Positions 1,225 through 28,011 of a stretch of DNA of 64,000 nucleotides are shown here, in pieces. A model generated the notes under the pieces. That model made no database searches, was not told the DNA's origin, and was given only the letters and a program-made list of their open reading frames with translations. The translations under genes and the position numbers were made by a program. The first letter of the stretch is position 1. Every line of letters starts with the position of its first letter. This DNA comes from Candidatus Parcubacteria bacterium (GTDB taxonomy: Bacteria > Patescibacteriota > Minisyncoccia > UBA6257 > HR35), in NCBI GenBank assembly GCA_026004495.1, contig BPJG01000001.1, positions 208,750 to 272,749 on the forward strand, read 5' to 3'.

Positions 1225-3660
1225 TTAAGCAAAACTAGAAATATATTTATAACGAGCCTCTATTTCTTTTTCTATTTCTTCCTTGGATTTTCCATATTTT
1301 AACAATGAATATTCAATCATTTTTCGAGTTAGTTCAAAATTAGGTGATGATGGTTTAATTGTTTTTATGCTAAAAGCATCAGAAACATAACCATCTATTA
1401 ATAATTTAATATAAAGATGGTAATTAGGAATATTTACAAGGTCAATTTTAGAAAAAATTGGATAAAATTGTTTTTCTAAAAATTCAGCATCTTCACTACC
1501 AACCCTAAAGACAGTAATTGTACCAACATTACCAAATACAGCCGATGATATTTCTTCTGGTAATTGTTTGATATATTGATGAGCTAAAGTTAAAGATAGC
1601 CTATATTTTCGAGCTTCAGATAAAATAGAGGCTATACCCTTAAAGGCAAAATTTTGAAACTCATCAAGAAAAAGGTAAAAATCTTTTCTTTGTTCTTCGG
1701 GTAAATCAACCCTTGAAAAAGCAGCTGATAAAATTTTAGCTACTAAAATCATACCTAAAAGATAAGCACTGGTATCGCCAATTTTACCCTTCGAAAGATT
1801 AACTATCAAAATTTTTCTATTATCCATAAGATCACGAAAGTTAATTACTGACTTAGATTGAGCAATTATAGGTCTTACAAAATCATTAGTTATAAAAGGA
1901 TTTAACTTAGAGGTTATCCAAGTAATCATATTTTCTAAAGATAATTCACCACCGACAACTACAGCTTGCTTAGTCCAAAATTCAACTACAGGATAATTAG
2001 TACATTTAAGCAAAAGTTCACGTCTAAATTTTTCATCAACAAAAACTCTAGAAACTTCCATTAAGGTAAAACCCCAATCAGGGTTATCCATTATCAATAA
2101 AAGTGCGTTTCTTAAATATTGTTCAAACATTGGACCACCAGTTAAACTTAAGTTATATAACTTATCGATAATTTCAATTAAAGTATTAATGATAAAGGTT
2201 TTTTGCTCAGGAAAATTTTTATCATACTCTAAAATATTTAAACCTAAAGGACGAGAGATATCTCCAGGACTAAAATAAATTACATCATCTATTCTTTCTT
2301 TAGGTATTAAACCCATAATTTCTTGAGCAACATCACCATGAGGATCAATAAAGCAAATACCATCACCATTTTTTATATCTTGTTCAGCAATATTTTTTAA
2401 AAGAGTAGTTTTACCTGTTCCTGTTTGCCCAATCAGATAAATATGCCTTCGACGATCATTCTTTTTGATTCTTACTAACGCTCTAGCACCTTGGTAAATA
2501 CTTTCTCCTAAAATTGTTCCCTCAGAGGGTAAATTTGGTGGTGGGGGTGCGGTTCGAGCCAAAAGCCAATGGATAATAGGCGATTTGGTATAAGAGGTTG
2601 GCAAATGAATAATTGAGGCAATTTCTTCTGAATTTAAAATAATTTTTTGACTTCTATTAAAAATTCGAAACGAAAATTCATAAATAAATCTTAACATCTT
2701 TCCTCTTTTTACACGATGAATAATAAATTCATTTAATTGAGGATTTATATACTGATGAAAGGCTGATTCAGCTGTTGTTAATAATTCTTCAGCATCAAAA
2801 ATTGTATTCGAAGAAACACATAGTCTAATATTTACATCAAAAAATGGTTTCGTCATTTTATTTTCTAATTTTTTAATTAAATAATCATCAATAGGTTTTT
2901 GTCTTTCTTCTATTTCTTTTTTTTCTTTAGCCTCTTTCGAAGAAAATATATCGTGCAAAGAACTAAAGGGATTCTCCTTAAAATCTTTACCTTGTTTTAA
3001 TTTATCAATAATTTTTTTTATTTTCTTTGAATATTTAGTTCCTTTAGGGTAAATAATTACTTGATAAGACATACCCTCACCAACTTTTTTAAGTTTATTA
3101 AAAGAAGCCAAAAAACTATCTAGGGGATCATTAGTTCCTTGAGCAATTTCTTGATATGTTTTTATTGGCTTAAAATTATTATCCTTTAAATTAATATAAG
3201 AACCTAATGTTATTCCTTGAGGATTAAAAATATTATAATCTTCTTCTACCAATCTTGCTTCAGAACCAGGCCAAAAAGCTTTAATTGCCTTCTGAATAGG
3301 ATCAAAATACTTTTTAGGAATAGATATATAAAAAAATATTTCTTCGCCGTAGTGTGGCGTGGCAATTTCAAAAACAATAGGATATTTAAGCCTTGATAGG
3401 GTATTAAGGAAATTTTCAAAATTATTTATTTCATCAATTAATCTTGAAGTATGAGATTCAGTTTTAGGCAAGTAATGATATTTAGGTAGTTCAATTAAAA
3501 TCAGAGAGTAATTTAATGATAGCCTTACTCTTTTTAATTCTGAAAATTTTTTAAGATAAAGGACCGTTAAATAAATCACAAATAAACCAAGAATACCAAC
3601 AATTATAGCTGAAAAATAAACCACCGATAAAGAAAAGCTATAATTTTCTAAAAAACTCAT
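1225..3660 (-). CDS. Membrane-anchored P-loop ATPase, type IV coupling protein-like (VirD4/TraD/TraG family)
   Basis: 811 aa. N-terminal TM helix. Walker A 'LIGQTGTGKTT' followed by 'IDPHGD'. Walker B 'LFLDEFQNF' (DEFxN is characteristic of T4CPs). Family assignment from motif recall only. Confidence 0.5.
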   Translation of the reverse strand: MSFLENYSFSLSVVYFSAIIVGILGLFVIYLTVLYLKKFSELKRVRLSLNYSLILIELPKYHYLPKTESHTSRLIDEINNFENFLNTLSRLKYPIVFEIATPHYGEEIFFYISIPKKYFDPIQKAIKAFWPGSEARLVEEDYNIFNPQGITLGSYINLKDNNFKPIKTYQEIAQGTNDPLDSFLASFNKLKKVGEGMSYQVIIYPKGTKYSKKIKKIIDKLKQGKDFKENPFSSLHDIFSSKEAKEKKEIEERQKPIDDYLIKKLENKMTKPFFDVNIRLCVSSNTIFDAEELLTTAESAFHQYINPQLNEFIIHRVKRGKMLRFIYEFSFRIFNRSQKIILNSEEIASIIHLPTSYTKSPIIHWLLARTAPPPPNLPSEGTILGESIYQGARALVRIKKNDRRRHIYLIGQTGTGKTTLLKNIAEQDIKNGDGICFIDPHGDVAQEIMGLIPKERIDDVIYFSPGDISRPLGLNILEYDKNFPEQKTFIINTLIEIIDKLYNLSLTGGPMFEQYLRNALLLIMDNPDWGFTLMEVSRVFVDEKFRRELLLKCTNYPVVEFWTKQAVVVGGELSLENMITWITSKLNPFITNDFVRPIIAQSKSVINFRDLMDNRKILIVNLSKGKIGDTSAYLLGMILVAKILSAAFSRVDLPEEQRKDFYLFLDEFQNFAFKGIASILSEARKYRLSLTLAHQYIKQLPEEISSAVFGNVGTITVFRVGSEDAEFLEKQFYPIFSKIDLVNIPNYHLYIKLLIDGYVSDAFSIKTIKPSSPNFELTRKMIEYSLLKYGKSKEEIEKEIEARYKYISSFA

Positions 3661-3669
3661 TTTGCTATT

Positions 3670-4050
3670 TTATATTATTTTTATTTTATTTTTTTTAACT
3701 AAAAATTTAAAGAAATGTCCTGCAAGTAAATCATGAAAGGTATCTATTAAATAAGGATTTTTTGTAGCAGCAATATACTGTAAACCATCAAAAATTCCTT
3801 TTTCTAAGACCAATTTTAATCCTGTTGATAAAACATTAGAAATTTCTTCAACTGACTGATGATGAATTTCTGCTTCTTTTTTAATTTCAGGCAATTCCTC
3901 AATTTCTTGATGGAGTTGTTTAATAAATTCCTTAAGTGAAGAATGAGCTTCCTCCTTTGTTAAATATTTCTTTTCTCTTAATTCTGATAATTTATGATGC
4001 TCTTCGAAATGTTTTAAAAATTCCTGTTCGCCTAAAAATTTCTCAACCAT
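3670..4050 (-). CDS. Hypothetical protein (charged, helical)
   Basis: 126 aa ORF in operon orientation between the T4CP-like gene and trmD; no recognisable motif. Confidence 0.45.
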   Translation of the reverse strand: MVEKFLGEQEFLKHFEEHHKLSELREKKYLTKEEAHSSLKEFIKQLHQEIEELPEIKKEAEIHHQSVEEISNVLSTGLKLVLEKGIFDGLQYIAATKNPYLIDTFHDLLAGHFFKFLVKKNKIKII

Positions 4051-4086
4051 TAAAAAATTATAAAGCCAGTTATAAAAATTTGTATT

Positions 4087-4752
4087 CTAAAATATTTTTT
4101 TGGCTTTTTTCATTCTCCAATTATTGATTTCTTTATGATTTCCAGAAAGAAGAATTTTAGGAACTTTTAATATTTTACCTTCTTTAGTTTTAAATATAGC
4201 CGGTCGAGTATAAACTGGCATACTATATAAACCAGGCAATCTTTTATCTTCTAAAGATAATGGATTTTTCAAAAAACCAGGTATATATCTTGAAATAGCA
4301 TCTACGATTATCATTGCTGGCAATTCTCCCCCTGTTAATATATAAGGACCAATATTAATAGACAAATCAACAATTTCTTTAACTCTTTCATCAACCCCTT
4401 CGTAATGACCACAAATTATTATGAAATGTTTATAGAAAATTAGTTTTTTAATTAGAGTATAGTTAAATTTTTTTCCTCTTAAATCTGTTAAGATAATTAT
4501 TTTAGGTTTAAGTTTTGATTTTTTTTTAAGAGATTCAATGGCTTTATATATAGGTTCAATTTTCAAAACCATTCCTGGACCTCCACCATAAGGATAGTCA
4601 TCTGTAATTTTAAATTTATTGTCGACAAAATCTCTCAAATTTACCAAATTTATTTTTATAATTCTATTTTTCTGAGCTTTTTTAAATAGAGAGGAATTAA
4701 AATAAGAAAATGCTTCAGGAAATAAAGTAATAATGTCAAATCTTACCATCAA
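4087..4752 (-). CDS. trmD: tRNA (guanine37-N1)-methyltransferase
   Basis: Motifs DIITLFPE, YPYGGGPGMV, CGHYEGVDERV and GGELPA typical of TrmD (SPOUT). Confidence 0.9.
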   Translation of the reverse strand: MMVRFDIITLFPEAFSYFNSSLFKKAQKNRIIKINLVNLRDFVDNKFKITDDYPYGGGPGMVLKIEPIYKAIESLKKKSKLKPKIIILTDLRGKKFNYTLIKKLIFYKHFIIICGHYEGVDERVKEIVDLSINIGPYILTGGELPAMIIVDAISRYIPGFLKNPLSLEDKRLPGLYSMPVYTRPAIFKTKEGKILKVPKILLSGNHKEINNWRMKKAKKIF

Positions 4753-4764
4753 AATTTATGGCTT

Positions 4765-5070
4765 TTAATTTTTTAGTTCTTCAATAATTTGATCACTTTT
4801 TGTTTTTAATTGCTCAATTTTATCTGGTTCTTCTAATTTTATATTTAATCGAGCATGATTTTTTAAGCCTATGGCTTTCATTATTGTTTTAATGGCTTTT
4901 ATCATTTCTCCCCTACGACCAATAATTAGACCCATATCTTGAGGATGAGTTTTGATTTTTAAAAGAACACCTAGTTCATCGAGATGGCGAGTTATTTTAA
5001 CATAATCTGGGTTATTGACCAATGATTTTATTATAAACTCTAAAACAGTAATGTATTGTTGCTTATCCAT
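4765..5070 (-). CDS. KH-domain RNA-binding protein (YlqC/UPF0109 family)
   Basis: 101 aa; KH GxxG motif (IGRRGEMIKAIK); adjacent to trmD as in the rpsP-KH-rimM-trmD cluster. Confidence 0.7.
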   Translation of the reverse strand: MDKQQYITVLEFIIKSLVNNPDYVKITRHLDELGVLLKIKTHPQDMGLIIGRRGEMIKAIKTIMKAIGLKNHARLNIKLEEPDKIEQLKTKSDQIIEELKN

Positions 5071-5115
5071 TTCTCTCTCTTTCTAATATTTAATATCGAC
5101 ACTATATTTTCTTTT

Positions 5116-6618
5116 TTATTTTATTTTAACATTTATCTTAGAAATATCAAGAGGTAATTTATTTAACCAAGGAGGGAAAATTAATAATTCAGCTTTTTCG
5201 ATTGAACTATATTTATCAAGATAATTTTTAACACCCTTAACATCTTGACCGGCAATTTCAGCAGTTAATTTTTTAACATCTATATCTCCCTTAACCTCAA
5301 CTTCGCCACTCAAGGAAACTGTCATTTCTTTATTTTTTAAGAAATTAAAATTATCATTTATAGTAACTGAATTAATTTTCAAATTAACAATTTTAAAATT
5401 TATATCCTGCCTTAAATTTTGTTTTGAAATAATATCTTTTAAATACTCTTTAAGGTCATTCTCTTTAATCCCAATAGTTTTTAAAGTGCCAATTCCTGTA
5501 AAAATAATTTCATCAGCTTGTTGTCCTACATTATGCGAAACATTAACAATTTTAAAATCAAAAATACCTAAATCTTCAGGAAAAATATAATTAGAATACT
5601 TTATCTTTAGCTCTTGTTTGAGTATTTCACTAATTTGTTTTTCTAAATTTAGCTTACCATCGGTTATATCATCTAAAGAAACAATACGAACGCTTCCTTC
5701 TCCACCGGTAATTGGTTCTAATATCTTAACTTCAATTTTATTTTCCCAACTACTACCCTTAAGCCCAGGAATAGTAAAAGTAGTATTTAAATCTGTTAAA
5801 TAATATTTAGGATCATTTTTTTCAGCAAATATAGTTACTTCTTGATTTCCGCCTTTTTCTAAATTTACTCTTTCTAAGGTACGATAAATATTTCCTTCAC
5901 CTGTTTGAATTCTTGTACCCGGAACTAAAGAAATAGAATTTTCTAAATCTTTATTAATAAATTTGACTTTTCCTCGCAAAGAATTGCTGCCTGATTTTAA
6001 TCCTGAAGCTTTTTGTCTAATAGAATGATTCTTTATTATTTCAATATATTCAGCTGGAAATATTAAATTTTCCAAATCTGGCTTAACAACATTAGCGGAT
6101 AAAGTTATTGTTTCTTCTATAGGTTGTTTTTCTGTTTTAAGAATTATATTTAAATTAAAATAGGCTAAATATTTTACCAAAATAAAATAACCACCCAAAA
6201 TTATTAAAATTATAAAAATTCCCACTAGAGTTAAATTTTTATTATTTTTTTTATTTTTATTAACAGCTTGATCATAATTTTTTATGTTTTTAACAACAGG
6301 CTTAGATTTCTGCGGTGGTAAAATATCAGTAACAATTTTAGTTGCTTCATCGGGCCCGTAATCACTTAAAAATATATCTAAGCCATTAGCCCTAGCTAAA
6401 GAATTTATTCTTTCATCATCGCTATCAATATAAATTTTTTTTCGCAATTTATTTATTTCACTCCTCAATATAGAGATATTAGTAGAGTTTAAAAAACATT
6501 TAGTATTTCGGGGCACAACAATAATAATTTCTTTAGCCTGAATTTCTTTAAGAGCATCAATAACTTCACCCAATTCTTCTGTACCCTTTAAATAGATATA
6601 ATCTCTTTCCTCTGTCAT
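5116..6618 (-). CDS. Hypothetical membrane protein
   Basis: 500 aa; cytoplasmic N-domain, one TM segment (~aa 135-160), large extracytoplasmic region; no motif recognised. Confidence 0.5.
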   Translation of the reverse strand: MTEERDYIYLKGTEELGEVIDALKEIQAKEIIIVVPRNTKCFLNSTNISILRSEINKLRKKIYIDSDDERINSLARANGLDIFLSDYGPDEATKIVTDILPPQKSKPVVKNIKNYDQAVNKNKKNNKNLTLVGIFIILIILGGYFILVKYLAYFNLNIILKTEKQPIEETITLSANVVKPDLENLIFPAEYIEIIKNHSIRQKASGLKSGSNSLRGKVKFINKDLENSISLVPGTRIQTGEGNIYRTLERVNLEKGGNQEVTIFAEKNDPKYYLTDLNTTFTIPGLKGSSWENKIEVKILEPITGGEGSVRIVSLDDITDGKLNLEKQISEILKQELKIKYSNYIFPEDLGIFDFKIVNVSHNVGQQADEIIFTGIGTLKTIGIKENDLKEYLKDIISKQNLRQDINFKIVNLKINSVTINDNFNFLKNKEMTVSLSGEVEVKGDIDVKKLTAEIAGQDVKGVKNYLDKYSSIEKAELLIFPPWLNKLPLDISKINVKIK

Positions 6619-7892
6619 TATAATCCCCTAGAAACTTGTTGATGTTTTTTAAATAATTCTTCAAAAAATAATATGTCTTTTTCGGTTAAAAATATATTTC
6701 TTTCTCTTAAAATTTCTAAAGAAATATCTAACGGCAGACCATAAGAAGTATACATCATAAATAATTTTTCAACTAATTCTTTATTATCGTTATATTTAAC
6801 AATCTTATCAAATTTATCTAATCCTCTTATAAGTGTTTTTTCAAATCCTTTAAATTCAGTAAAGATTACATTAATAATTTTATCATAATTATTAAGATTT
6901 TCATATAAGGAAGAAAATTTATTTTTAATATCTAAAACAAAGCTTTCTATATAGTTAATTAAATTATTTTTTATTAATTTTAGCATTAATCTTCTTAATA
7001 TTCTTCTAAGTATATAACCTCTATCTAAATTACTGGGATAAATACCATCAGCGATTAAAAATACGCTACCTCTTAAATGATCAAGAATAATTCTTAAATC
7101 TCGAATAGAAATATCTGGTTTTTTAGAGATAATATCTGATCTTAGGGGTTCAAAAAGATCGGTTTCAAAAATAGTTTCTGTATTTTGGACAATTTTCATT
7201 AATCTTTCAAATCCCATTCCGGTATCAACTCCTGGCAATTCTAATTTATTTAATTTACCTTCTTGATTTTGATAATATTCATTGAATACCAAATTCCAAA
7301 CCTCAAGATTATTAATATAAATTTCAGTTGTTGGTCCACAGGGTCCTTCTTTACCAGTGGGCCCCCAAAAATTATCTTCACGCCCAAATGCTTTAATATT
7401 TTTATCATCAAAGCCTATCTTTTTCCAAATTTGATAAGAAGTATCATCATAGGGAATTTTATTTTCGCCCTTAAAAATTGTTACATAATCTATTCTTAGC
7501 CCTAATTCTTTATTTAAAAATTCATAGGCCCAAAAAATTGCTGAATTCTTAAAATAACCTGAAAAAGAATAATCACTTGGATCATCGCTACCGAGAGGTC
7601 CAAAAGAAAAATTGCCTAACATTTCAAAAAAAGTTAAATGTCTTTCATCACCAATTTCATCAATATCCGTAGTTCGAAAACATTTTTGAATGCTAATTAA
7701 TCTTCGAGTGCCAAAATCATTAAGGGCATCTTTCTTGCCAATAAAATAATCCTTAAATTGTTGCATTCCAGCAGTAGTTAAAAGAACTGAGGAATCATTT
7801 TCAGGAATTAAAGATGACGAAGGAACCCACCTATGTCCCCTATTTTGAAAAAAATTAATGAATATTTTTCTAATTTCTTCTGAATTTATCAT
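6618..7892 (-). CDS. alaS: Alanyl-tRNA synthetase, aminoacylation plus tRNA-recognition domains only
   Basis: 424 aa. Collinear with E. coli AlaRS residues ~1-455 (TTAGMQQFK, FFEMLGNFSFG, GPCGPTTEIY, VDTGMGFERL, RGYILRRILRR). Ends where the editing domain would begin; no editing/C-Ala coding downstream. Confidence 0.85.
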   Translation of the reverse strand: MINSEEIRKIFINFFQNRGHRWVPSSSLIPENDSSVLLTTAGMQQFKDYFIGKKDALNDFGTRRLISIQKCFRTTDIDEIGDERHLTFFEMLGNFSFGPLGSDDPSDYSFSGYFKNSAIFWAYEFLNKELGLRIDYVTIFKGENKIPYDDTSYQIWKKIGFDDKNIKAFGREDNFWGPTGKEGPCGPTTEIYINNLEVWNLVFNEYYQNQEGKLNKLELPGVDTGMGFERLMKIVQNTETIFETDLFEPLRSDIISKKPDISIRDLRIILDHLRGSVFLIADGIYPSNLDRGYILRRILRRLMLKLIKNNLINYIESFVLDIKNKFSSLYENLNNYDKIINVIFTEFKGFEKTLIRGLDKFDKIVKYNDNKELVEKLFMMYTSYGLPLDISLEILRERNIFLTEKDILFFEELFKKHQQVSRGL

Positions 7893-7899
7893 TATCTAT

Positions 7900-8988
7900 T
7901 TAAAAAAATTTATTTTTTATTATTCCCCCACCTAATAAAATAATGTGATTTTTTAATGAATTATCAACCTGATCGCCATTAATATAAAAAACTGAACTTT
8001 GACCCAGGGCTATACCTTTTATTTTTTTGCTAAAAATAACACTCTTATCTTCTAAATTTAAAATTCCTGAAACAAGTGGTTGACGGTAACGACAACGAAC
8101 AAAAATATTAATTTTATTATTTTTACATATTTTTGAAATAATTTTTTCCCCAATCAATAAGTTTAATGATTTAAGCCTTATTCTGGATGTGAAAAGTATT
8201 TCTTCATTTTCTTTAGCTACTATCAATTTATTATTTTTAATATCCTTTAAGGCAACATAATAAGGACCACCACCTGTTTTAATATCTAATCCATGCCTTT
8301 GCCCCTCAGTAAAGAAATAATAACCCGAATGATAACCTAAGATATTATTCTGACTATCTACTATTGTACCTGAATATATCGGCAAATATTCTTCAAGAAA
8401 ATTTCTTAGTCTTATCTTTCCCAAAAAACATATTCCCTGGCTATCTTTTTTACAAGCATTAGACAAATTATTTTCTATTGCTAGTTGTCTAACTTCTGAT
8501 TTTAAATAATCTCCTAGCGGGAAAATAATATTTTTTAGATAATTTTTATTTATTTGCCACAAAAAATAGGTTTGATCCTTATTGGTATCTTTAGGAATGG
8601 CAATGAAATAATTATTTTCTAATTTAATAATCTTAGCATAATGACCACTGGCAATAAATTTAATATTAATTCTTCTTAAAAAATCTAATACATAACCAAA
8701 TTTTATTTGGCTATTACAAAGAACATCAGGATTAGGAGTAAAACCTCGACTATATTCTTTAATCATCTCTAAGGCAATTGTTTTTTGATAATCTTCACTA
8801 ATATCCAAAGTATAAATTGGAAAATCTAATTTTTCAGCTACCAAACGAGCATCTAATTCATCTTGAGGGTTACAAAACTTAGATATTTTTAAATGAATAC
8901 CAATCACCTCATAGTTTAGACCCTTTAATAGTAAAGCAGAAACTGAGGAATCTACTCCACCTGACATTAAGATGGCAATTTTTTTCAT
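7900..8988 (-). CDS. mnmA: tRNA-specific 2-thiouridylase
   Basis: PP-loop SGGVDSSV; TPNPDVLCNSQIKF motif; 362 aa. Confidence 0.88.
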   Translation of the reverse strand: MKKIAILMSGGVDSSVSALLLKGLNYEVIGIHLKISKFCNPQDELDARLVAEKLDFPIYTLDISEDYQKTIALEMIKEYSRGFTPNPDVLCNSQIKFGYVLDFLRRINIKFIASGHYAKIIKLENNYFIAIPKDTNKDQTYFLWQINKNYLKNIIFPLGDYLKSEVRQLAIENNLSNACKKDSQGICFLGKIRLRNFLEEYLPIYSGTIVDSQNNILGYHSGYYFFTEGQRHGLDIKTGGGPYYVALKDIKNNKLIVAKENEEILFTSRIRLKSLNLLIGEKIISKICKNNKINIFVRCRYRQPLVSGILNLEDKSVIFSKKIKGIALGQSSVFYINGDQVDNSLKNHIILLGGGIIKNKFF

Positions 8989-9093
8989 TTTATCTATTAT
9001 TTAATATTAATATTCTTTTAAGGTTAAAATTTTAATTAAATAATTATAATTAAAAATTGAACAATTTTAAAGTTGTTTAATAACTAAACAAAA

Positions 9094-10671
9094 ATGAATT
9101 TAATGATAGTTGAATCACCTAAAAAAGCAAAAACTATAAAAAAATTTTTAGGCAAAGATTTTACAGTTATAGCTTCCTTTGGTCATATTTTAGATTTACC
9201 TTCAAAAAAATTTGGCCTTTATTTAAAAAATAATAAATTGGAATACACTTACCAAATAATAAATTGGAAATTCATTAAAAAATTAAAATCACTTATAAAT
9301 AAATTTCAGGAAATATATTTAGCTACTGATCCTGATCGTGAAGGTGAATTTATAGCTTGGAGCATTAGTAAATATTTAGGAAATAAAAAATTCTATCGAA
9401 TTCGTTTTTACGAAATTACCTCATCGACAATTTTAAATTCATTAAAAAATAAAGATAAGATAAACAATAATCTTGTGGCTAGCCAAAAAGGTAGAAGATT
9501 TTTAGATAGAATTGTTGGTTATACAATTTCACCTATTTTATGGAAAAATAAAATTGGTAAATCTGCTGGTCGAGTTCAATCATCAGCCTTAAGATTGATA
9601 GTTGAAAGAGAAGAAGAAATTATAAATTTTAAATCTGAAAAATATTATCATTTGGAAATAGTCTTTTCAAATTTTAAAGCTTATCTTTTAAATGAAAAAA
9701 AGTCGTATCAATTTAGAAGCGACAAAAAAGAATATTTAGAACAGCTCAAAGAAAAATTAAAAAATGAAAAATTTATAATTAAAAAAATAATTAAAACTGA
9801 AAAATTAATTTCTAAACCAACAACTATTGATACTGCCCTTCTTCAAAGAATAGCTTTTTTAAAACATCGCTTCTCCTCTTCCCTAAGTATGTTTTTAGCC
9901 CAATCACTTTATGAAAAAGGATTAATCACTTATCATCGAACCGATAGCTTTAATTTAGCCACAGAATTTTTAGTTAAGATTAAAAATTACCTTAAAGAAG
10001 ACTATGAACCACCTAGAAAAATAAAAAAAACATTTAGTCAAGAAGCACACGAAGCAATTAGGCCAGTTTATTTAAAAAAAGATTTAAATTTAGAAAAAAA
10101 AGAAAAATTACTCTATGAACTAATTTTCAATTACACTCTCTCTGCTTGTAGTAAAAATGCTAAAGTCGAAAAAACCAAATATATTTTAACTCCCCCAAAA
10201 TATCCTCACTTAATCTTTGAAGCTGAAGGTGAGAAATTATTAGTTTTAGGTTTTTTAAAATATTATCCCTTTAAACTGTCATTCAAAGAAATTCCTGAAT
10301 TAAATAAAAATGAAATTTTACAACCGTCAGCTATAAATATTATTGAAAAACAAACCAAACCGCCTAATAGATATACCGAATCAACTTTAATCAAAAAATT
10401 AAAAGAATTAAATATTGGCAGACCCTCAACTTATGCTGAAATCATTAAAACTCTATTTCGAAGAAAATATATTGAAAGATATAAAAATACCCTAAAGCCC
10501 ACAGAATTAGGCAAAAAAGTAATCCATTTTCTTAAAAAAAATTATCCTTCAATTATTGATTTAAAATTTACTATTAAGATGGAGACTGATTTAGATAAAA
10601 TTGCTCAAGGCAAATTAGATTACGAAAAATTTATAATTAATTTTTGGCAAGAATTAAAAAATATTTTATAA
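9094..10671 (+). CDS. topA: DNA topoisomerase I (type IA), compact form lacking C-terminal Zn-ribbon domains
   Basis: N-terminal Toprim (VESPKKAKTI...ASFGHILDLP); active-site Tyr context 'ITYHRTDS'; 525 aa. Confidence 0.85.
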   Translation: MNLMIVESPKKAKTIKKFLGKDFTVIASFGHILDLPSKKFGLYLKNNKLEYTYQIINWKFIKKLKSLINKFQEIYLATDPDREGEFIAWSISKYLGNKKFYRIRFYEITSSTILNSLKNKDKINNNLVASQKGRRFLDRIVGYTISPILWKNKIGKSAGRVQSSALRLIVEREEEIINFKSEKYYHLEIVFSNFKAYLLNEKKSYQFRSDKKEYLEQLKEKLKNEKFIIKKIIKTEKLISKPTTIDTALLQRIAFLKHRFSSSLSMFLAQSLYEKGLITYHRTDSFNLATEFLVKIKNYLKEDYEPPRKIKKTFSQEAHEAIRPVYLKKDLNLEKKEKLLYELIFNYTLSACSKNAKVEKTKYILTPPKYPHLIFEAEGEKLLVLGFLKYYPFKLSFKEIPELNKNEILQPSAINIIEKQTKPPNRYTESTLIKKLKELNIGRPSTYAEIIKTLFRRKYIERYKNTLKPTELGKKVIHFLKKNYPSIIDLKFTIKMETDLDKIAQGKLDYEKFIINFWQELKNIL

Positions 10672-10680
10672 TTTAATCTA

Positions 10681-11034
10681 ATGGTTAGAGTCAAAAGGGG
10701 TAAAATAAAAACTAAAAAAAGAAAGAAAATTTTAAAATTAGCCAAGGGTTACAAGTGGAGTAGAAAATCAAAAGAAAAATTTGCCAAAGAAGCAATTTTG
10801 CATGCTGGCGTAAAAGCTTATCGTGGACGCAAAGAAAAAAAGAGGAATTTTAGAAAATTATGGCAAGTTCAACTTAATGCCTTTCTTAGATCTCGTGGCT
10901 TGAAATATAGTACTTTTATTCATCAATTAAAAGAAAATAATATCATCTTAAATAGAAAAATTTTAGCCGAATTGGCTAATAATTATCCTCAAATTTTAGA
11001 TAATATTATCGAAGAATTAAATTTAAAAAGTTAG
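10681..11034 (+). CDS. rplT: 50S ribosomal protein L20
   Basis: MVRVKRG..., basic N-terminus, NRKILAELA motif; 117 aa. No infC/rpmI upstream; topA sits there instead. Confidence 0.9.
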   Translation: MVRVKRGKIKTKKRKKILKLAKGYKWSRKSKEKFAKEAILHAGVKAYRGRKEKKRNFRKLWQVQLNAFLRSRGLKYSTFIHQLKENNIILNRKILAELANNYPQILDNIIEELNLKS

Positions 11035-14000
11035 CTAAATTATTCTTAAAGGAATCAATTATTTTATTACTAAATCCAAGCTGAGAACATCCCAAGCAAT
11101 CACCTTCATAACTAACCTTTAACAGCCAGCCACCCTTAAGAGCACCATTATAACCCCCAATTAAATAACCAGCATTATCTGCCTCAACAATCGATGAGCC
11201 AAAGCTTATTTCATCTCTACTCTGCCCTCCATAATATTTTACCCAAACTAAATTAAAATTTTTATCAACCTTCATTAACGCTAAAGACCAATCAGAGAAA
11301 TTATTTCCATCTTGCGTTAAGGGTAAATAACCGGTTATCAAAAAATTATTATCGTAATCTAAAATAATATCATTTCCGTAAAAATAATCATTACTAATTA
11401 ATTTTTCTTGAATAACTTCGCCATCATCAGGATTAATTTTTCTTAAAATTAATTTATATCTATTATCATCGGGGTCAAACATATTAGTTAAAGCAATAAT
11501 ATTACCATCATCAGCAAAAATAATCTTTTTAATTGTTTCTCGGCTACCAATTTTTAAAATATATTCTTTTTGCCAACGATAACTAAGATCAGCTTTTACT
11601 TTTACCAAGTAAGATTGATTATTTATTTCTCCACCCGCAAATATAAAAACATTAGTTTGATTTAAGACTGAATTAAATTGACTACTTAAGGCAAAATTAA
11701 TTGAAGAAATGTCCTTTAAAGTAGTAGAAGTAATTAACCAAATTTTTCCATAATTATTATTTGTTCTACCAACAACTATATAATTTATACCATCATAAGT
11801 TATATCACTAAAATAAGATGAATCAAAAGAGTTATCCATAATTAATTTAAGCGAACTATCAAATTGAGCCAAATAACCAGAATTAGCAACAGGATCGTTC
11901 TGATAATAATTACCTAAGGTCACAAAATAATTGCCATCATAAATAACTGATCGAAATTGATGACTAATATAACTTGGATCCATTAAACTACTTGAGCTAA
12001 CTATAATATTACCATTAATATCAAATTTGGCTATCCAGAAAGATGAAGTATTAATAAGTAAATCTTCACCAACAGCAACATAACCATCATCTGCTCTAAT
12101 TAACTTATTAATTTTTTTATTTTTGCCAATATTTTTTGAAAAATAATTATCGCATTGATTGACTAAAATCTTTTGATTTGGCTTGATAACCCTTGAAGTT
12201 AAAGATAGAGGTGTACTAGTAAGGTTGTAATTAGATGTACTAAAGCTTGAAATATCTGAAACAGGGGACGAAATTGTACTAAAGCTAAAAATATTAGTGG
12301 TCGTTATGTTATAAAGATTATTTTTAAGATAAAATAAATTTTTATCAGAAACAAATCTAATTAAATTGAAATAATACTTTGTTATAAATCCAAACCAAAA
12401 CTCTTCAGGCTTTAAATCATCTCCGAATGCTTCTATTATTTTAGTTATTTTTTTTAAATAAGCAATAAAAGGACTATCATCGATAAAACTACCAATTAAT
12501 AAATAACTATTATCATCTAATTGTAAAAAATTATTAAATACTAATCGATCATTAGAAGATAAAGCAGTTATTTTATATTCAGTTAATTTATCAAAGTTTT
12601 GATTTAATTTAATTAAATAATTTTCGCTACTACTATTGACTACTAACCAAAAATTATTTTTTTTATCCTGAAATATTCTTCTAATATCTATAGTTGAATA
12701 ATCGCCAGTATATTTTTTTATCCAGGCTAAATTACCCTGATAATCAGTTTTTACAAAAATATAACTGGTAGCATTTAAAGATTTATCATACATTGCATTA
12801 AAAAAATATCCTCCATCATTAGTTTGAAAAAGATAATTATTTCTTGGAGAATCCATGCTGAAATAAGAAGAAAATGCTATATTATCATATTGCTTTATCC
12901 ACTCAATTTTATTTTGATTATCAAATTTAGCCAAAAAAGCAGGTGGTACAGCCATATAGCCATAACTTCCTAACAAAATAAAGCCATCATCTTGTGTTTT
13001 ATTGCCAGCATATATTCTTCCAAATGTAATCTGATAATAATAATCTCCACCGCTTAAAATATCTCCGGTTGAACTTGAAATTTCAACTAATTGAAAGCCA
13101 GAATAATATCCTATGTTTCTGATTAGATTTATATTGCCTGAAAAATTATTATTAATAAATACCAATTTTTGGACAGCACTACAATCACTACCACTACAAT
13201 AAAGTCTTGACCATTGGGGATTAAAATCTTTATCAGTTTTTATTAGAATAGATTTATCGCTTAGATTATAACCTAAAACATAGCTTTCATCAGGTAATTG
13301 ATGAATGTAATTTAAATCGAGAGGAGATGAAGTATTTAAATAAATTGTTTTGATAAATTTAGGATTGCCGAATTTATCTAAAAAAATAGCTAGAAACGAC
13401 GAAGTGTTAGATGATAAATAATTATTACCAATAACTAAATAATCACCAGCTTTATTTCGAAAAACATAATTTCTAGTTGGATAAAAATTAAATAATTTAT
13501 TCCAACAAATATCCTGGCCCATTAGATTACCATAATTTATACCGAAGTTTAATTTCAAAGCTTGACAAGAACTTAGAGTAGTAGTTCCATAAATAATTGA
13601 TCCTGAGGTGCCAAAAGCAATTAAACATTTATTATTGCCAACCTCTAAAATCTCTTCATCACTACCACCATCAGTTAAAGCGGAAAATTGATTTTTTGTT
13701 TCTTTAAATACTCTTGATTCTAAATTAGCATTAACTTCAAATTGTCGAGCATCGCGCCTAAAAACATAAAGATAAAAATAATTTTTAATTGGTTGACTAT
13801 TATTAATAATATTTAAGGGATCAACTGGCAATTGGGGCAAAATTTGATTATTTTCATTAAAATTTATTGGCAACCAACCTTCACCATTGGGATTAAAAAC
13901 ATTAGTTGCTGATGAATTTTGTTTAATTTGCCAAAGATTGCCATAAGCATCAGTAATAGTTGAAAAATTAAAGGTTGATTGATCAACTGGAATTGAAATA

Positions 14001-14248
14001 TAAATTGACGAATTATCTTCATCTAAACCAGTTAAATCATATAAAGGACCATCCAAATCAGGATTTTTTGCCAGGTTTAAATAGTTATTAATAGCTATTT
14101 CTAAAGCTTGTAAATCTCTTATTCTTTGTAAATCTCTATTTCTTTTGGCTACTTCAATAGGATTAACTAAATAAACAAACAAAGAGGTTAAAATAGCAAT
14201 CAAAGTTATAATAACTAAAATTTCAATTAAAGTAAAACCTTTTTTCAT
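11006..14248 (-). CDS. Giant pseudopilin-fusion surface protein (prepilin N-terminus, GspG-like domain, beta-propeller repeats)
   Basis: 1080 aa. N-terminus MKKGFTLIEILVIITLIAIL = class III signal peptide/prepilin motif (G|FTLIE). ~180 aa GspG-like domain shared with the neighbouring gene (NPDLDGP, GWLPINF, LPVDP, KNYFY). Remainder: repeated ~40 aa G/D/Y-rich propeller-like units. Confidence 0.75.
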   Translation of the reverse strand: MKKGFTLIEILVIITLIAILTSLFVYLVNPIEVAKRNRDLQRIRDLQALEIAINNYLNLAKNPDLDGPLYDLTGLDEDNSSIYISIPVDQSTFNFSTITDAYGNLWQIKQNSSATNVFNPNGEGWLPINFNENNQILPQLPVDPLNIINNSQPIKNYFYLYVFRRDARQFEVNANLESRVFKETKNQFSALTDGGSDEEILEVGNNKCLIAFGTSGSIIYGTTTLSSCQALKLNFGINYGNLMGQDICWNKLFNFYPTRNYVFRNKAGDYLVIGNNYLSSNTSSFLAIFLDKFGNPKFIKTIYLNTSSPLDLNYIHQLPDESYVLGYNLSDKSILIKTDKDFNPQWSRLYCSGSDCSAVQKLVFINNNFSGNINLIRNIGYYSGFQLVEISSSTGDILSGGDYYYQITFGRIYAGNKTQDDGFILLGSYGYMAVPPAFLAKFDNQNKIEWIKQYDNIAFSSYFSMDSPRNNYLFQTNDGGYFFNAMYDKSLNATSYIFVKTDYQGNLAWIKKYTGDYSTIDIRRIFQDKKNNFWLVVNSSSENYLIKLNQNFDKLTEYKITALSSNDRLVFNNFLQLDDNSYLLIGSFIDDSPFIAYLKKITKIIEAFGDDLKPEEFWFGFITKYYFNLIRFVSDKNLFYLKNNLYNITTTNIFSFSTISSPVSDISSFSTSNYNLTSTPLSLTSRVIKPNQKILVNQCDNYFSKNIGKNKKINKLIRADDGYVAVGEDLLINTSSFWIAKFDINGNIIVSSSSLMDPSYISHQFRSVIYDGNYFVTLGNYYQNDPVANSGYLAQFDSSLKLIMDNSFDSSYFSDITYDGINYIVVGRTNNNYGKIWLITSTTLKDISSINFALSSQFNSVLNQTNVFIFAGGEINNQSYLVKVKADLSYRWQKEYILKIGSRETIKKIIFADDGNIIALTNMFDPDDNRYKLILRKINPDDGEVIQEKLISNDYFYGNDIILDYDNNFLITGYLPLTQDGNNFSDWSLALMKVDKNFNLVWVKYYGGQSRDEISFGSSIVEADNAGYLIGGYNGALKGGWLLKVSYEGDCLGCSQLGFSNKIIDSFKNNLANFLNLILR

Positions 14249-17200
14249 TGATTAATTGTTATTGAATTAATTGTAATTGTAGGAATTTGAGATTCGTCCA
14301 GTCTAGGATCCCATTTAAGAATTATAAACATTTTAGAGCAAATTAGATTCAAATTATACAAACGATTTGATCCTTTTTGTAAATTATATTCTTTATCATC
14401 GCAAATAAATTTATATTCTTTTATTTTATCTTGATTATTATTCGTACTAGCATTAATATCAACAACATTAATAAACTTGGGAGGATCAATTACTTCAATA
14501 TAAATAGCATAATTTCTTGCTTTTTTACCTGTTTCTTTGCTACCCAAGAGGGTACTAGTAAAAGTTTCTCCTATCTCAAAAATTTGATTATCAGTAGTAA
14601 TTTTATAATACTTAAATTTTGCTTGTTTATTATACTTATCACCAACACCATCAATCGGCGTTGATGTTCCTTCACCTATCTCATTAATTGCTGAAATTGT
14701 ATAAGTTGCAGAGGTTGCTAAACTCATTAAATCAATATAATTTAAATTGTCTGGTGAATTGGTAGCAAGTAAAATATAATTACTTGAAGTTGCTCTATAA
14801 ATTCGGTATTCTTTTATTTTACCAAAACCAGCTTTGGAGGAATAATTTTCAATTTTATCAATTACTAACCAAGCACCAAAAGTTCCGGTTTGTCTAATTG
14901 AAAAACTTGGTTGGGGTAGTGTCAGAGCAGTTGTACAAATTTCATTACTTGGTAAACTTTCTCCATTAGGATAATTAGCTTTAACCACATAACAATAACT
15001 TTCGCCAGCTAAAAGATTATTATCAGTAAAAGAAAGAGTAGATGTATTTGTTGTTGCATATGGTGAATTACCATAACTACTTCCTTTAATTTTTCGATAA
15101 ATTGAATAATTTAACAATACGCTTTCACCAGCTGAAGCCCAATTAAGAGTAATAGAATTATTCCCTAAAGTATACCTTACATTTTGAGGCGGCAATTTAA
15201 AATAAAAACCAATAGAGTTATTACCTGAAGTTATTAAGGTACTTTGATTATTTATTGCTTTTATGAGATAGTTATTATTAGGTTTACTTTCGTAATTGTA
15301 ATCAATATAAGAAGTAGCGGTAGTGGTAACAATCTTGATTCCATTCCGATAGACAACATAATAATTAACACCGCTTACACCATTCCAAATTAGTTGAATT
15401 CCTGAATCGGAAGTATAACTAAGATTAGGAGAAATGGTTGACAATACACCCGAAAACAATGCTTGACACTTAACTAAGCTTTTATCACTTTCGCCAATTG
15501 AATTAAGTGCGGTAACATAATAACAATAATTAATTCCTTCACTTACCGAATTATCAGTATAAGAAGTAGCTGTTGTTGCAGCAATAAGAATAAAATTATT
15601 TATCTCATTAGTTGAGGTTGATCTATAAATTTTATAATACTGAATATTCTCACCACCATTATATTGAGGAAGTTGCCATTCAAGTACAATAGATAATGAA
15701 CCAGTCGAAATGCTTAAATCTACAGGAGGTGTTGGTCGTAATTTATCAGATGTTGTTGCTGAACAAAATTCATTGGAAAAATTACTAACAAAGAAAAATA
15801 AATGCAAACCACTTCGATAACAATTTTTACCAGATAAAGGACTAGTATCAGTTGCATAATTGCCAAAAATATTTGTTATGTAATTATAATTATCAGATGA
15901 AGTAGCCCGGTAAATATATACAAGAAAACTAGAAAGACTTCTTAAATAATCCAAAAAATTATCAATAGAGAGATAGTTATAATTAGCACCCGATCTTGAA
16001 AAAAGAGTATATCTTTTATCTATTAAATTAAATTCTGTAAAAAAAGATTTTTTAAATAAATCATTCACATTACAAACATTAGCTAAATTTTCATAATCAG
16101 GTAAAATTTTGGAAACGAAATTTAAACTATAATTTAAAACTTGAATATCGGGTGAATTGATTTTTAAATTCGATGAATAATGGAAAAAATTAGATGATAA
16201 AGCTGATGGACTGATAATATTAATTAAAAATCTTTGTTGGATATTACCTTTGTTAAATATATTAAAGACTGGATCACTACTTGAACTAATATTTAGTGCT
16301 AATTGTCTATAAGAAGATGGACCCGTTGTAAAATAATGAGAATTACCAACTATGAAATAATAATCATTAGAAGATATTTCTAAACCATAAAAATTATCAT
16401 TATTATACCAACCAATATTTTTAGCAAAAATTATCTCGCCTGTTGTCGAATTAATTTTCATTACCAAACCGTCATAATTTAGATTATTATATGAATTTGA
16501 TTTACCGATAATAATATAATTACCATCGTAATCTTTTTTAACCTTATAAAGATAGTCATCACCACCAGCTGAATATCTTTTTTGCCAAAGAATTTGACCT
16601 TGATTATCAATTGCAATAGCAAAAGGGTCGTAATGGTTAGCATCAAATTGACTATAGCCAAAAATTAAATAACCAGAAGAGGAGGTCGCGATTGCCATAC
16701 CAAAATCATTACCACCACTATCATAAATTTTTTGCCAAATTAATTTTCCTTCTCTATCTACTTTAATTAAAATCACATCATAATCTTTTCGAAAAGAATT
16801 GCTATAACCTACAATAATATATCCATTATCATTAGCTTTAATTAATCCTTGACCAACATCATTCTTTAGACCACCAAATGTTTTAAAAACTTTTATTACA
16901 CCATTATTATTAAAAAGCGAAAAAATAATATCGTTATCACCTTGACCAAAACTCGAAGAATAACCAGTAAGAATAATTTCATCGCCATCTAAAATTCCAG
17001 CAAATATTTTTTCATCTTTTTTACCACCAATTTTCTTTGACCAAACAGTATCAAATGTCGTCGAAGATATTCTTACCAACAGACCATCATAATTATTACC
17101 AGATTTTACTTGACCTCCCAAGATGAAATAACTGGATGAAGCAAGAATAAAATTAAAACTACTCTCATTGGTTGTACTTGAAATTTTAATAGCTTGAGGA

Positions 17201-20126: not shown

Positions 20127-20198
20127 GCCGCCATCGTCTAATGGCAAGGACACCGCTTTCTCAAGGCGGAAATACGGGTTCGACTCCCGTTGGCGGCA
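20127..20198 (+). tRNA. tRNA-Glu (anticodon CUC)
   Basis: Cloverleaf: acceptor GCCGCCA/TGGCGGC + A, D-arm TCGTCTAATGGCAAGGAC, anticodon stem CCGCT/GGCGG with loop TTCTCAA, T-arm GGGTTCGACTCCC. Collinear with E. coli tRNA-Glu. Confidence 0.8.
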
Positions 20199-21632
20199 AT
20201 GAGATATCTAATTACAACCTCTATACCTTATGTAAATGATAATCCTCATATAGGACATCTTTATGAATATATTTTAGCAGACATTTTTGCCCGTTATTTT
20301 AGAAATAAAAATGATATCTTCTTTTTATCAGGAGTGGACGAAAATGGAATAAAAATAGCAAAATCTGCTATTGAAAATAATAAGAAAATAAAAGATTTTG
20401 TTGATGAAAAATATCTAAGTTTTTATTCTCTGAAGGATAAATTTTATTTATCTTTTGATAATTTTATTAGAACAAGTAGTGAAAATCATAAATGGGGAGT
20501 TTATAAATTTTGGCAATTATGCCAAGATGATATTTATATAGATAAATATTGTGGTTATTATTGTTATAGTTGCGAAGCCTATTATGAAGAGAACGAAGTT
20601 GAAAATTTAATTTGCCCTCTTCACAAAAAGAAATTAGAAAAAATTGAAGAAAAGAATTATTTTTTCAGACTCACAAAATATTTAGATCAAATTAAATTAT
20701 TAATTGAAAAAGAAAAAATAAAAATTTATCCTCAAGAAAAAAAAATAGAAATTTTAAATATTTTGAAAGAAAAAAAGATTAAAGATTTAAGTATTTCTCG
20801 TGATATCAACAGAAGCTATGGTTGGGGTATAACAACTCCTAATGATAATTCTCAGGTAATTTATGTCTGGTTTGATGCTTTAATAAATTATTTGTCTGGC
20901 TTAGGTTTTGGTAGTGATAATGAAACAAATTTTAAAAAATATTGGCACGAAGGAGAAGTTATTCATTTTATAGGTAAAGATATAGTTAAATTTCATGCTA
21001 TTTATTGGCCAGCAATGTTATTATCTGCTAAAATAAAGGTTCCCGATAAAATAGTTGTTCATTATTTTATCAATATACGAGGAGAAAAAATGTCAAAAAC
21101 AATTGGCAATGTAATTGGACCCAACGATTTATTAAATAACAATTTAGAACCAGATGTTATTAGAGCTTATTTCGCTTATCAAAATATATTTAACGATTGG
21201 GACTTTAATTTTCAAAATATAGTTAATTTTCGAGAAGGTATTTTAAAAAAAGAATTGGGTAATCTAATATTAAGAATTTATGGCCTTTTTAGAAAATACA
21301 ATAGGGATATTAAATTACAAAAAAATTTATTAAAAAAGGAAAATCTTACTACCTTAAATAATTATTCAAAATATATGGCTGATTTTGAAATAAATATAGC
21401 TTATCAAAATATATTTAATTTAGTAAAAGAACTAAATCAATTTATTGATAAAGAAAAAATTTGGCAAAATTTAAGTGAAGAAAATATTTCTACCTTGGCT
21501 TACAATCTTATTGATATTCTAAATGTTTATCAATTTTTAATGCCTGAAAAATTAAATCGAGTAAAAAATAATTTAAAAATTCAAGATGATTTTCTTATAA
21601 ATAAAGATTTGGAATTAAAACCTATCTTTTAA
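20199..21632 (+). CDS. metG: Methionyl-tRNA synthetase (compact)
   Basis: HIGH motif (PYVNDNPHIGH), KMSKS (KMSKTIG), Zn-knuckle cysteines; start codon placed immediately after the tRNA-Glu 3' end (track start 20190 overlaps the tRNA). Confidence 0.88.
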   Translation: MRYLITTSIPYVNDNPHIGHLYEYILADIFARYFRNKNDIFFLSGVDENGIKIAKSAIENNKKIKDFVDEKYLSFYSLKDKFYLSFDNFIRTSSENHKWGVYKFWQLCQDDIYIDKYCGYYCYSCEAYYEENEVENLICPLHKKKLEKIEEKNYFFRLTKYLDQIKLLIEKEKIKIYPQEKKIEILNILKEKKIKDLSISRDINRSYGWGITTPNDNSQVIYVWFDALINYLSGLGFGSDNETNFKKYWHEGEVIHFIGKDIVKFHAIYWPAMLLSAKIKVPDKIVVHYFINIRGEKMSKTIGNVIGPNDLLNNNLEPDVIRAYFAYQNIFNDWDFNFQNIVNFREGILKKELGNLILRIYGLFRKYNRDIKLQKNLLKKENLTTLNNYSKYMADFEINIAYQNIFNLVKELNQFIDKEKIWQNLSEENISTLAYNLIDILNVYQFLMPEKLNRVKNNLKIQDDFLINKDLELKPIF

Positions 21633-27613: not shown

Positions 27614-27640
27614 TTTCTTTTTTATCAAAAATGAATAAAT

Positions 27641-28011
27641 AATCTTGGTAAGATTATAAGCCGGATTCTGTATCCTTAAAATTAAGGACAGCAATCATTT
27701 ATCTGGAACTTAGATTACTCAAAGTTTCAAGCGGTACTCCCAAATTAAATTGGGCACGACCTTGCACCCGGAAAAGAAGGAAACAATTTTCTGAATTACT
27801 TCAGAAAATAATGGAGTAGCCTAAAAATGACTTTTTAGACACCTCCATTCTTTTCACCTTTCTCCGATTTGAAAACTAGATAGTATAGTCTCTGTGCTTC
27901 CTTCTTAGGGCTTACGCCCTAGCTCCATTTCGGAGCTTTCCTTTTTAGGGTGTCCGGACTTTCCTCTCTTTAATATAAGAATTAAAGAGTGATTGCTTAT
28001 CCTACCAAGAT
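27641..28011 (-). ncRNA. rnpB: RNase P RNA (bacterial type A-like)
   Basis: Minus-strand sequence carries P4 5' strand AGGAAAGUCCGGAC and P4 3' strand ACAGAAUCCGGCUUA. P3 hairpin CUCUUUAAU...AUUAAAGAG. 5'/3' ends pair as a long P1 (AUCUUGGUAGGAUAAGC / GCUUAUAAUCUUACCAAGAU). ~370 nt, GC-enriched, ORF-free. Confidence 0.85.

Follow-up and report, generated by a model that had tools for sequence, protein, structure and literature searches.

Among the synthetases, alanyl-tRNA synthetase (AlaRS) is said to be alone in retaining a four-domain prototype across all of biology, with an editing function under exceptional selective pressure and an active site that cannot exclude serine (PMC10036535, PMC7373986). 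Can a bacterium live with an AlaRS that has kept only its aminoacylation module? This question is raised by a gene in a stretch of 64,000 nucleotides from a Candidatus Parcubacteria bacterium (GenBank assembly GCA_026004495.1, contig BPJG01000001.1, positions 208,750 to 272,749 of the forward strand), which we call the window. The gene, mini-alaS, lies at 6618..7892 on the minus strand, and an initial annotation had described its product, mini-AlaRS, as a natural minimal AlaRS without editing and C-Ala domains. Our analysis suggests that mini-AlaRS is likely the working housekeeping AlaRS of a Parcubacteria (Minisyncoccia) lineage, reduced to the aminoacylation module.

The open reading frame (ORF) at 6618..7892 starts with ATG, ends with TAA and encodes 424 amino acids (aa). 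An identical protein is deposited as a 'hypothetical protein' (GIW65690.1, KatS3mg094_209) from the Candidatus Parcubacteria metagenome-assembled genome KatS3mg094, which has a contig of 634,165 bp. Residues 6-419 match positions 1-426 of the 552 positions of the Pfam family PF01411 (tRNA-synt_2c, E 1.7e-99), and the NCBIfam model TIGR00344 (alaS) is matched at positions 1-427 of 847. No match to the editing domain PF07973 and no match to C-Ala is found in the 424-aa protein in the Pfam and NCBIfam scans. The best sequence matches in the PDB are engineered N-terminal fragments of AlaRS, from E. coli (3hxu, 441 aa) and A. aeolicus (1riq). The AlphaFold2 model, computed with 78 relatives, has a predicted local distance difference test score (pLDDT) of 94.2 and a predicted template modelling score (pTM) of 0.91, and it superposes with a template modelling (TM) score of 0.87 on E. 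coli AlaRS-N441 and of 0.88 on the human catalytic fragment. The protein folds into two domains: a class II catalytic domain of residues 1-240 (7173..7892, minus strand), delimited by motif residues and the secondary structure of the model, and a helical tRNA-recognition domain of residues 241-424 (6621..7172, minus strand), delimited by alignment and the model and ending in 'FKKHQQVSRGL'. The helical domain is modelled with high confidence over residues 250-421. Mini-AlaRS is a complete aminoacylation module and nothing else. The family matches, the PDB matches and the predicted structure agree with the initial annotation on this point, and the comparison with AlaRS fragments that it had proposed shows the same fold as in E. 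coli N441. Compared with a full-length alaS product, the protein stays below the TIGR00344 cut-off and has neither the editing HxxxH...CxxxH motifs nor C-Ala. Compared with the small AlaRS of the Candidate Phyla Radiation (CPR), which combines catalytic, tRNA-recognition and editing domains in ~590 aa, it has no editing domain. What is found at 6618..7892 is a naturally occurring aminoacylation domain on its own, that is, a natural mini-AlaRS.

This form is not confined to one genome. A search of 5.8 billion proteins returned 92 mini-AlaRS clusters from NCBI, JGI, ENA and Logan, which are 54-100% identical, 421-441 aa long and contain PF01411 only. Under ~53% identity the matches change to proteins of 577-638 aa with both PF01411 and PF07973, which we call small-AlaRS. 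All 92 mini-AlaRS end 1-8 residues past a conserved H..S[KR] motif; in small-AlaRS the same motif continues into '..EKKFGGHG..RLHTATHLL', which comprises the FGGHG linker and the HxxxH editing motif. Over the N-terminal domains mini-AlaRS is 45-53% identical to small-AlaRS and has the same bacterial-type deletions, without an 'AGGKHN' loop. Neither form contains a beta-barrel linker or C-Ala, in line with previous descriptions of CPR small-AlaRS (bioRxiv 10.1101/2023.05.29.542759), but small-AlaRS retains its HxxxH/CxxxH editing domain, whereas mini-AlaRS ends just before it. The initial annotation placed the end of the protein where the editing domain would start, which is correct relative to the small-AlaRS of Patescibacteria but not relative to canonical AlaRS, in which a beta-barrel linker separates the tRNA-recognition and editing domains (bioRxiv 10.1101/2023.05.29.542759).

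We placed mini-AlaRS in a neighbor-joining (NJ) tree of 143 sequences and 416 columns with 100 bootstraps. Mini-AlaRS is monophyletic in 100 of the 100 bootstraps, and mini- and small-AlaRS together are separated from canonical AlaRS in all 100 as well. Some small-AlaRS lineages (P0093 and relatives, Ryanbacteria L002) are sister to the mini clade, and others (Kazan, Howlettbacteria, Saccharibacteria) are basal to it. The ancestor of mini-AlaRS was thus a CPR small-AlaRS of ~590 aa and not a canonical AlaRS of 870 aa, and since the mini clade is nested inside small-AlaRS, the simplest history is that the mini form arose by a single deletion of the editing domain. Both the editing domain and C-Ala are absent, as previously stated, but C-Ala was already gone in the ancestor and only the editing domain was lost here. 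The truncation is conserved among relatives, with 92 clusters in one clade under purifying selection: the ratio of nonsynonymous to synonymous substitution rates (dN/dS) is 0.084 for an unsaturated pair of mini-alaS genes (dS 0.082), and saturated pairs give 0.13-0.38, which are upper bounds. Mini-AlaRS has a median net charge of -5.5, compared with -14 for the N-terminal domains of small-AlaRS. The less acidic character could aid RNA binding, or it may just reflect the Lys-rich composition of a genome with 26% GC. The mini-AlaRS proteins are also poor in alanine, with a median of 1.9% against 4.5% in the N-terminal domain of small-AlaRS.

The controls and outgroups for these comparisons were loci from a contig scan with an alignment of the mini clade, in which a generic FFEMLGNF pattern dominated and only small and canonical AlaRS were recovered. 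Gene lengths in the controls correspond to ~850-940 aa for canonical AlaRS and ~570-640 aa for AlaRS of Patescibacteria. A second pattern, 'QKCFRTTDI', was not specific for the clade in metagenomes but gave five extra true mini loci. QKCFRTTDI without the 'AGGKHN' loop after motif 2 is also present in many canonical metagenome AlaRS of ~870 aa, beyond Patescibacteria (L090-L169). One further candidate, an ORF of 449 aa on a 2.7-kb ENA contig (L116, 1412-2761), was rejected as an independent mini-AlaRS, being a canonical AlaRS cut 9 nucleotides (nt) from the contig end. Its translation ends in a junk-like tail ('...IGRASCRERV*'), which is a reason to inspect short AlaRS calls on small contigs before taking them for natural mini forms.

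To assess the alanine pocket, we took residue equivalences from a HMMER alignment to the E. coli chain, numbered without Met1, and validated the numbering with the G237A entry 3hxz. The pocket and motif residues of mini-AlaRS are M43, R73 (E. coli R69), W176 (W170), N200 (N212), V202 (V214), D223 (D235) and G225 (G237). All seven are invariant in the 92 mini-AlaRS and unchanged in nearly all small and canonical AlaRS, the exception being M43, which is Val in 2 of 31 small-AlaRS. According to previous studies, this pocket unavoidably activates serine through Asp235 (PMC7373986). The sequence of mini-AlaRS appears to offer no sign of improved discrimination against serine. As D223, G225 and the rest of the pocket match those of enzymes that misactivate Ser and Gly, Ser-tRNA-Ala and Gly-tRNA-Ala should be made.

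The residues that read the G3:U70 base pair of tRNA-Ala are less uniform. In E. coli, N303 and D400 are reported to read this pair (PMC10036535). The first corresponds to N288 in 'PSN' (codon 7029..7031, minus strand), equivalent to A. fulgidus N359, which contacts U70, and it is invariant in 92 of 92 mini-AlaRS. The second, which is responsible for reading the 2-amino group of G3 and is equivalent to A. fulgidus D450, aligns with T382 in 'MYTSYG' (codon 6747..6749, minus strand). At this position (the Asp of 'YDTYG') the mini clade contains Thr in 62 sequences, Ser in 23, Ala in 6 and Val in 1; small-AlaRS contains Glu in 21 of 31 sequences, Gln in 8, Ser in 1 and Ala in 1; and canonical AlaRS contains Asp in 18 of 20, Glu in 1 and Gly in 1. 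Mini-AlaRS therefore retains the catalytic core and the U70-contacting Asn of AlaRS but not the G3-reading Asp. The tRNA-recognition domain is complete, as initially described, but that description had overlooked T382 in place of this Asp. These observations suggest that mini-AlaRS probably reads G3:U70 in a modified way. Small-AlaRS has already departed from the canonical Asp, and its Glu and Gln residues indicate that the G3:U70 reading head was already being remodelled while the editing domain was still present.

The closest known counterpart is the mini-AlaRS of Tupanvirus (TuAlaRS, 461 aa), which was shown experimentally to charge tRNA-Ala and a microhelix in a G3:U70-dependent manner (Antika et al. 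2023, PMC10036535). Both are natural AlaRS with the aminoacylation domain only, and in both the G3-reading Asp is replaced by Thr (T416 in TuAlaRS, T382 here). However, the U70-contacting Asn is lost in TuAlaRS (P321) and invariant in the mini clade (N288). TuAlaRS is a single viral gene of eukaryotic ancestry, from a virus of amoebae whose host supplies a full AlaRS, whereas mini-AlaRS belongs to cellular bacteria, forms a clade of at least 92 clusters that descends from the small-AlaRS of Patescibacteria, and is presumably the only AlaRS of the cell. As TuAlaRS groups with the cytoplasmic AlaRS of amoebae (PMC10036535) and the mini clade nests in bacterial small-AlaRS, the shared architecture is convergent, and the change from Asp to Thr at the G3-reading site is likewise convergent. 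The Nanoarchaeum equitans AlaRS is similar in that its catalytic part is a separate polypeptide in a tiny genome, N. equitans being a symbiont. Its break falls inside the tRNA-recognition domain, and its beta subunit contains the rest of this domain and the editing domain (PMC10036535). In mini-AlaRS, by contrast, the recognition domain is whole, and neither the window nor the flanks of 11 mini-clade loci yielded a beta-like gene. With a different break point, mini-AlaRS does not appear to be a Nanoarchaeum-type split. Engineered fragments of E. coli (N441, N461) and A. aeolicus (N453) have the same domain content and fold as mini-AlaRS (TM 0.83-0.87), but they are laboratory truncations, whereas mini-AlaRS is natural, conserved and under selection. 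Such fragments are active on acceptor-stem substrates, and TuAlaRS and A. aeolicus N453 provide a precedent for the aminoacylation module functioning alone (PMC10036535).

Where, then, is the missing editing function? We built a profile hidden Markov model (HMM) from 25 small-AlaRS editing domains, which detected a small-AlaRS positive control at 3.8e-96 in the same run. It has no significant match in the six-frame translation of the 64-kb window (best E 2.6), and none in the sequences flanking mini-alaS at 11 fetched loci, which sample the mini clade over its whole depth. These loci are L081-L085, L087, L101, L135, L145, L153 and L159, which amount to 10 distinct sequences with L081 identical to part of the window; two more, L088 and L089, were fetched and stand outside the scan. 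A profile from 12 of the same 25 sequences (A2) detects AlaX-S (E ~4e-15), AlaX-M (6e-13) and ThrRS editing domains in the PDB, so that the negative results also cover AlaX-type genes. Of the 58 ORFs of at least 90 aa in the window, 51 were scanned with Pfam, and none of these belongs to the DTD, YbaK or AlaX families. An adjacent split editing gene is excluded, both in the window and in the 11 mini-clade loci. When the small-AlaRS editing profile was searched with HMMER against 1.84 billion representative proteins, 3,016 proteins matched at E <= 1e-30. Among the best 150 of them, most short proteins are N-truncated AlaRS gene calls that retain the end of the recognition domain, and a few others start at internal positions; judged by eye, none of the short editing proteins in these 150 has the Lys/Ile/Asn-rich composition of the mini lineage. 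We rejected the short editing-only proteins as a stand-alone family of this lineage, since they are mostly truncated calls and give no evidence for it. Two editing-only proteins, P0134 (165 aa, 'MLLDTGELKA...') and P0197 (158 aa, 'MFKGGL...'), start inside the small-AlaRS linker; they may be either fragments of genes or true free-standing editing proteins of other Patescibacteria.

Taken together, our reading of the locus is as follows. A small-AlaRS ancestor with catalytic, tRNA-recognition and editing domains, in which C-Ala was already gone, lost its editing domain in one deletion at the domain boundary, and the shortened gene has since been maintained by purifying selection across a clade of at least 92 protein clusters. 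Mini-AlaRS would be the sole AlaRS of the cell, and it would be monomeric, because C-Ala is the module for oligomerisation and for binding the tRNA elbow. Alanine would be activated in the unchanged pocket and tRNA-Ala charged through acceptor-stem contacts alone, by analogy with E. coli N461, A. aeolicus N453 and TuAlaRS. Ser-tRNA-Ala and Gly-tRNA-Ala would be produced by the enzyme and not cleared in cis. Several points weigh against this reading. Mini-AlaRS scores 357.6 bits against the TIGR00344 equivalog cut-off of 457 and 320.7 bits against the cut-off of 529 for the small-AlaRS model NF002436, and NCBI names its relatives 'alanine--tRNA ligase-related protein'. The loss of the Asp equivalent to D400 could mean an altered tRNA specificity, and neither the window nor the fetched loci contain a tRNA-Ala gene in which G3:U70 could be seen. 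The activity, the monomeric state and the mischarging are deduced from sequence and analogy, the single origin is based on an NJ tree from one alignment, and the search for an editing gene or a second alaS covered 64 kb out of a genome of 634 kb and, in relatives, flanks of up to 10 kb on each side.

Could the short gene be an artefact or a pseudogene, produced by mis-assembly near 6618, by a frameshift or early stop codon, or by an alternative genetic code in which the stop is read through? We consider this practically negligible. A chimeric contig at ~6618, which the initial annotation had named as what could overturn its claim, is excluded by an independent Logan assembly of DRR290133 (L081, 8,352 bp), which is identical to positions 2392-10743 of the window with zero mismatches over both gene junctions. 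All six mini genes whose DNA was examined end in TAA, and TAA, TGA and TAG all serve as stops in the window, which rules out read-through under an alternative code. The editing HMM has no match in any frame of the window, so no frameshifted remnant of the editing domain lies downstream. The shared end point in 92 clusters from four sources and the strong purifying selection also argue against an artefact. A non-canonical paralogue, with a normal alaS elsewhere in the genome and the truncated copy in a regulatory or tRNA-dependent transfer role like other truncated aminoacyl-tRNA synthetase (aaRS) paralogues, would account for the scores below the equivalog cut-offs, the 'related protein' name and the replaced G3-reading Asp, and the search for a second alaS covered 64 kb of the genome. 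We nevertheless regard it as very improbable. Mini-AlaRS nests among housekeeping small-AlaRS without a long divergent branch, its catalytic residues and U70-contacting Asn are all invariant, the dN/dS is 0.08, and the gene lies in conserved synteny with translation genes. Genomes of ~0.6 Mb rarely retain aaRS paralogues. A weaker indication is that no second AlaRS from six long contigs (634,165, 680,436, 661,819, 660,692, 556,583 and 258,447 bp) is among the best 120 homologues listed.

If mini-AlaRS is the housekeeping enzyme, any mischarged tRNA may still be cleared in trans by a free-standing factor encoded elsewhere in the genome. This could be a protein of the AlaX type, whether a split-off editing domain or an unrelated AlaX, or DTD acting on Gly-tRNA-Ala, or both. 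Such an arrangement would parallel that of archaeal ThrRS with ThrRS-ed. A cis domain would be lost more easily if a trans factor pre-existed, and ~90% of the genome lies outside the searched part. However, neither the window nor the flanks of the 11 loci yielded a tRNA_SAD or AlaX-type sequence, and the scanned window ORFs include no DTD, YbaK or AlaX. New gene splits usually remain adjacent, and none adjoins mini-alaS. No short editing protein with a composition like that of this lineage, judged by eye, is among the best 150 representative matches. A closely related split-off editing gene is therefore unlikely, and trans editing as a whole is a serious possibility that, on balance, we do not favour. 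The initial annotation had offered a split gene or AlaX as the alternatives; the adjacent split is now excluded, and the pair is incomplete, as a third outcome, no AlaRS-type editing whatsoever, is at least as likely as either. We lean towards this third outcome, in which the errors would be tolerated as in other host-dependent organisms with reduced genomes. Editing-deficient aaRS are described in host-restricted organisms, including Mycoplasma PheRS, LeuRS and ThrRS and those of microsporidia (Melnikov et al. 2018, as cited in PMC11415595 and PMC7373986); the likeness to mini-AlaRS is the loss of proofreading in reduced-genome, host-dependent organisms, with a likely 'statistical proteome'. 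Alanine makes up 3.75% of the 18,530 residues in the window proteins, compared with ~6% in small-AlaRS relatives and 10-12% in high-GC bacteria, and the low alanine content of the mini-AlaRS proteins themselves parallels this value. Low alanine usage lowers the exposure to Ser-for-Ala and Gly-for-Ala errors about two- to three-fold, which would help error tolerance. It is quite possible, and we propose it tentatively, that these are the first cellular organisms known without clearance of Ser-tRNA-Ala and Gly-tRNA-Ala, in cis or in trans, and with a remodelled G3:U70 reading head.

Mini-alaS is embedded in an ordinary neighborhood. Immediately upstream is mnmA, encoding a tRNA 2-thiouridylase (7900..8988, minus strand), in a conserved gene order, and downstream is a translationally coupled gene for a protein of 500 aa (5116..6618, minus strand). 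The last base of the mini-alaS stop codon (6618..6620) is the A of the ATG of this gene (TAATG overlap). The downstream product had been called an unrelated membrane protein, and this is confirmed: it has a single transmembrane helix and matches none of the families in Pfam or NCBIfam. Four genomes (the window, L087, L088 and L089) share the order fn3 giant protein / 1080-aa protein / L20 / topA / mnmA / mini-alaS / ~500-aa transmembrane protein / khpA / trmD, and KatS3mg097 (AP024681.1) retains alaS / transmembrane protein / khpA. On the deep branch (P0096), a ribosomal-protein cluster contains alaS, flanked there by L5 and L17, and an unrelated 105-aa membrane ORF follows it. The transmembrane proteins are ~500-534 aa long, with a cytoplasmic alpha/beta domain of ~90 aa, one transmembrane helix and a large beta-rich ectodomain. 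Homologues precede khpA at L082 11280-12884, L087 11290-12825 and L089 11275-12798; TAATG joins the gene to the mini-alaS stop in L089 as in the window, while the two genes overlap by 8 nt in L082 and are 23 nt apart in L087. The protein is conserved in the core sub-lineage only and not clade-wide. Its N-terminal domain has a generic alpha/beta fold, with no significant PDB match in a fold search and no resemblance to AlaX, DTD, YbaK or C-Ala. We rejected the idea that this protein stands in for the lost domains, since it has no family, is absent beside the deep-branch alaS and has an N-terminal domain unlike editing or C-Ala folds.

The window as a whole has 26% GC and consists of ordinary Patescibacteria housekeeping DNA plus a glycosylation island. 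Its genes include those for L11, NusG, TrmD, KhpA, MnmA, TopA, L20, MetRS, a MurC-like ligase, FtsW, RNase III, NusB, RNase P RNA, nucleoside diphosphate kinase (NDK), TyrRS, RNase J, EF-G, S7, S12 and PNPase. MetRS (20190-21632, plus strand, 480 aa) has no Pfam domain beyond the class I synthetase core and is another pared-down synthetase. Its listed TTG start overlaps the 3' end of tRNA-Glu(CTC) (20127-20198, plus strand) by 9 nt, and the real start is probably slightly downstream. Similarly, the longest ORF of NDK (27029-27694, minus strand), which codes for 221 aa from a TTG start, shares 54 nt with the 3' part of the RNase P RNA gene (27641-28008, minus strand), and its Pfam match falls in two stretches, the best of which covers residues 134-218 only; NDK probably has an internal true start or an unusual N-terminal extension.

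At 11006-20067 of the window (minus strand) lie a 1940-aa protein with fibronectin-III repeats and an adjacent 1080-aa protein with an N-terminus like that of type IV pilins or pseudopilins. Both genes are also found at positions 1-6960 of L087, L088 and L089, in conserved synteny upstream of L20/topA/mnmA/alaS, and their products may form a cell-surface attachment apparatus of these episymbionts. The island of glycosyltransferases and methyltransferases at 30.1-43.0 kb contains a full-length UDP-glucose/GDP-mannose dehydrogenase of 424 aa (39892-41166, minus strand) and, two genes away, a 275-aa copy (42187-43014, minus strand) without the C-terminal UDP-binding domain and part of the N-terminal domain, which may be a decaying paralogue. 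A homologue of BpsA_C (branched-chain polyamine synthase) adjoins a CofD-family protein (48097-49077 and 49170-50162, both minus strand). Branched-chain polyamines are a trait of thermophiles and unusual content for a Patescibacteria genome of 0.63 Mb. Three cupredoxin-domain proteins and a Fe/Mn superoxide dismutase (24850-25485, plus strand; 28529-30097, 46445-46855 and 47049-47666, minus strand) suggest copper and oxygen handling in an otherwise minimal genome.

In the full-text literature searched, which leaves most subscription journals outside its scope, no cellular AlaRS is described as lacking an editing domain, and the sole published natural exception found there is one viral gene, TuAlaRS. 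Here the exception is a monophyletic and environmentally widespread bacterial clade. As its genes are labelled 'hypothetical protein' or 'ligase-related protein', alaS may be recorded as missing from such genomes by automated pipelines. Mini-AlaRS would also provide a compact natural AlaRS scaffold of bacterial origin. In this Parcubacteria lineage, either a separate proofreading protein has not yet been seen or errors at alanine codons are tolerated. If our reading is true, the clade would allow one to test what level of mistranslation at alanine codons is bearable for a free-replicating cell, whether the lost editing is made up for by low alanine usage or by an unknown factor, and how G3:U70 is recognised without the canonical Asp and C-Ala.

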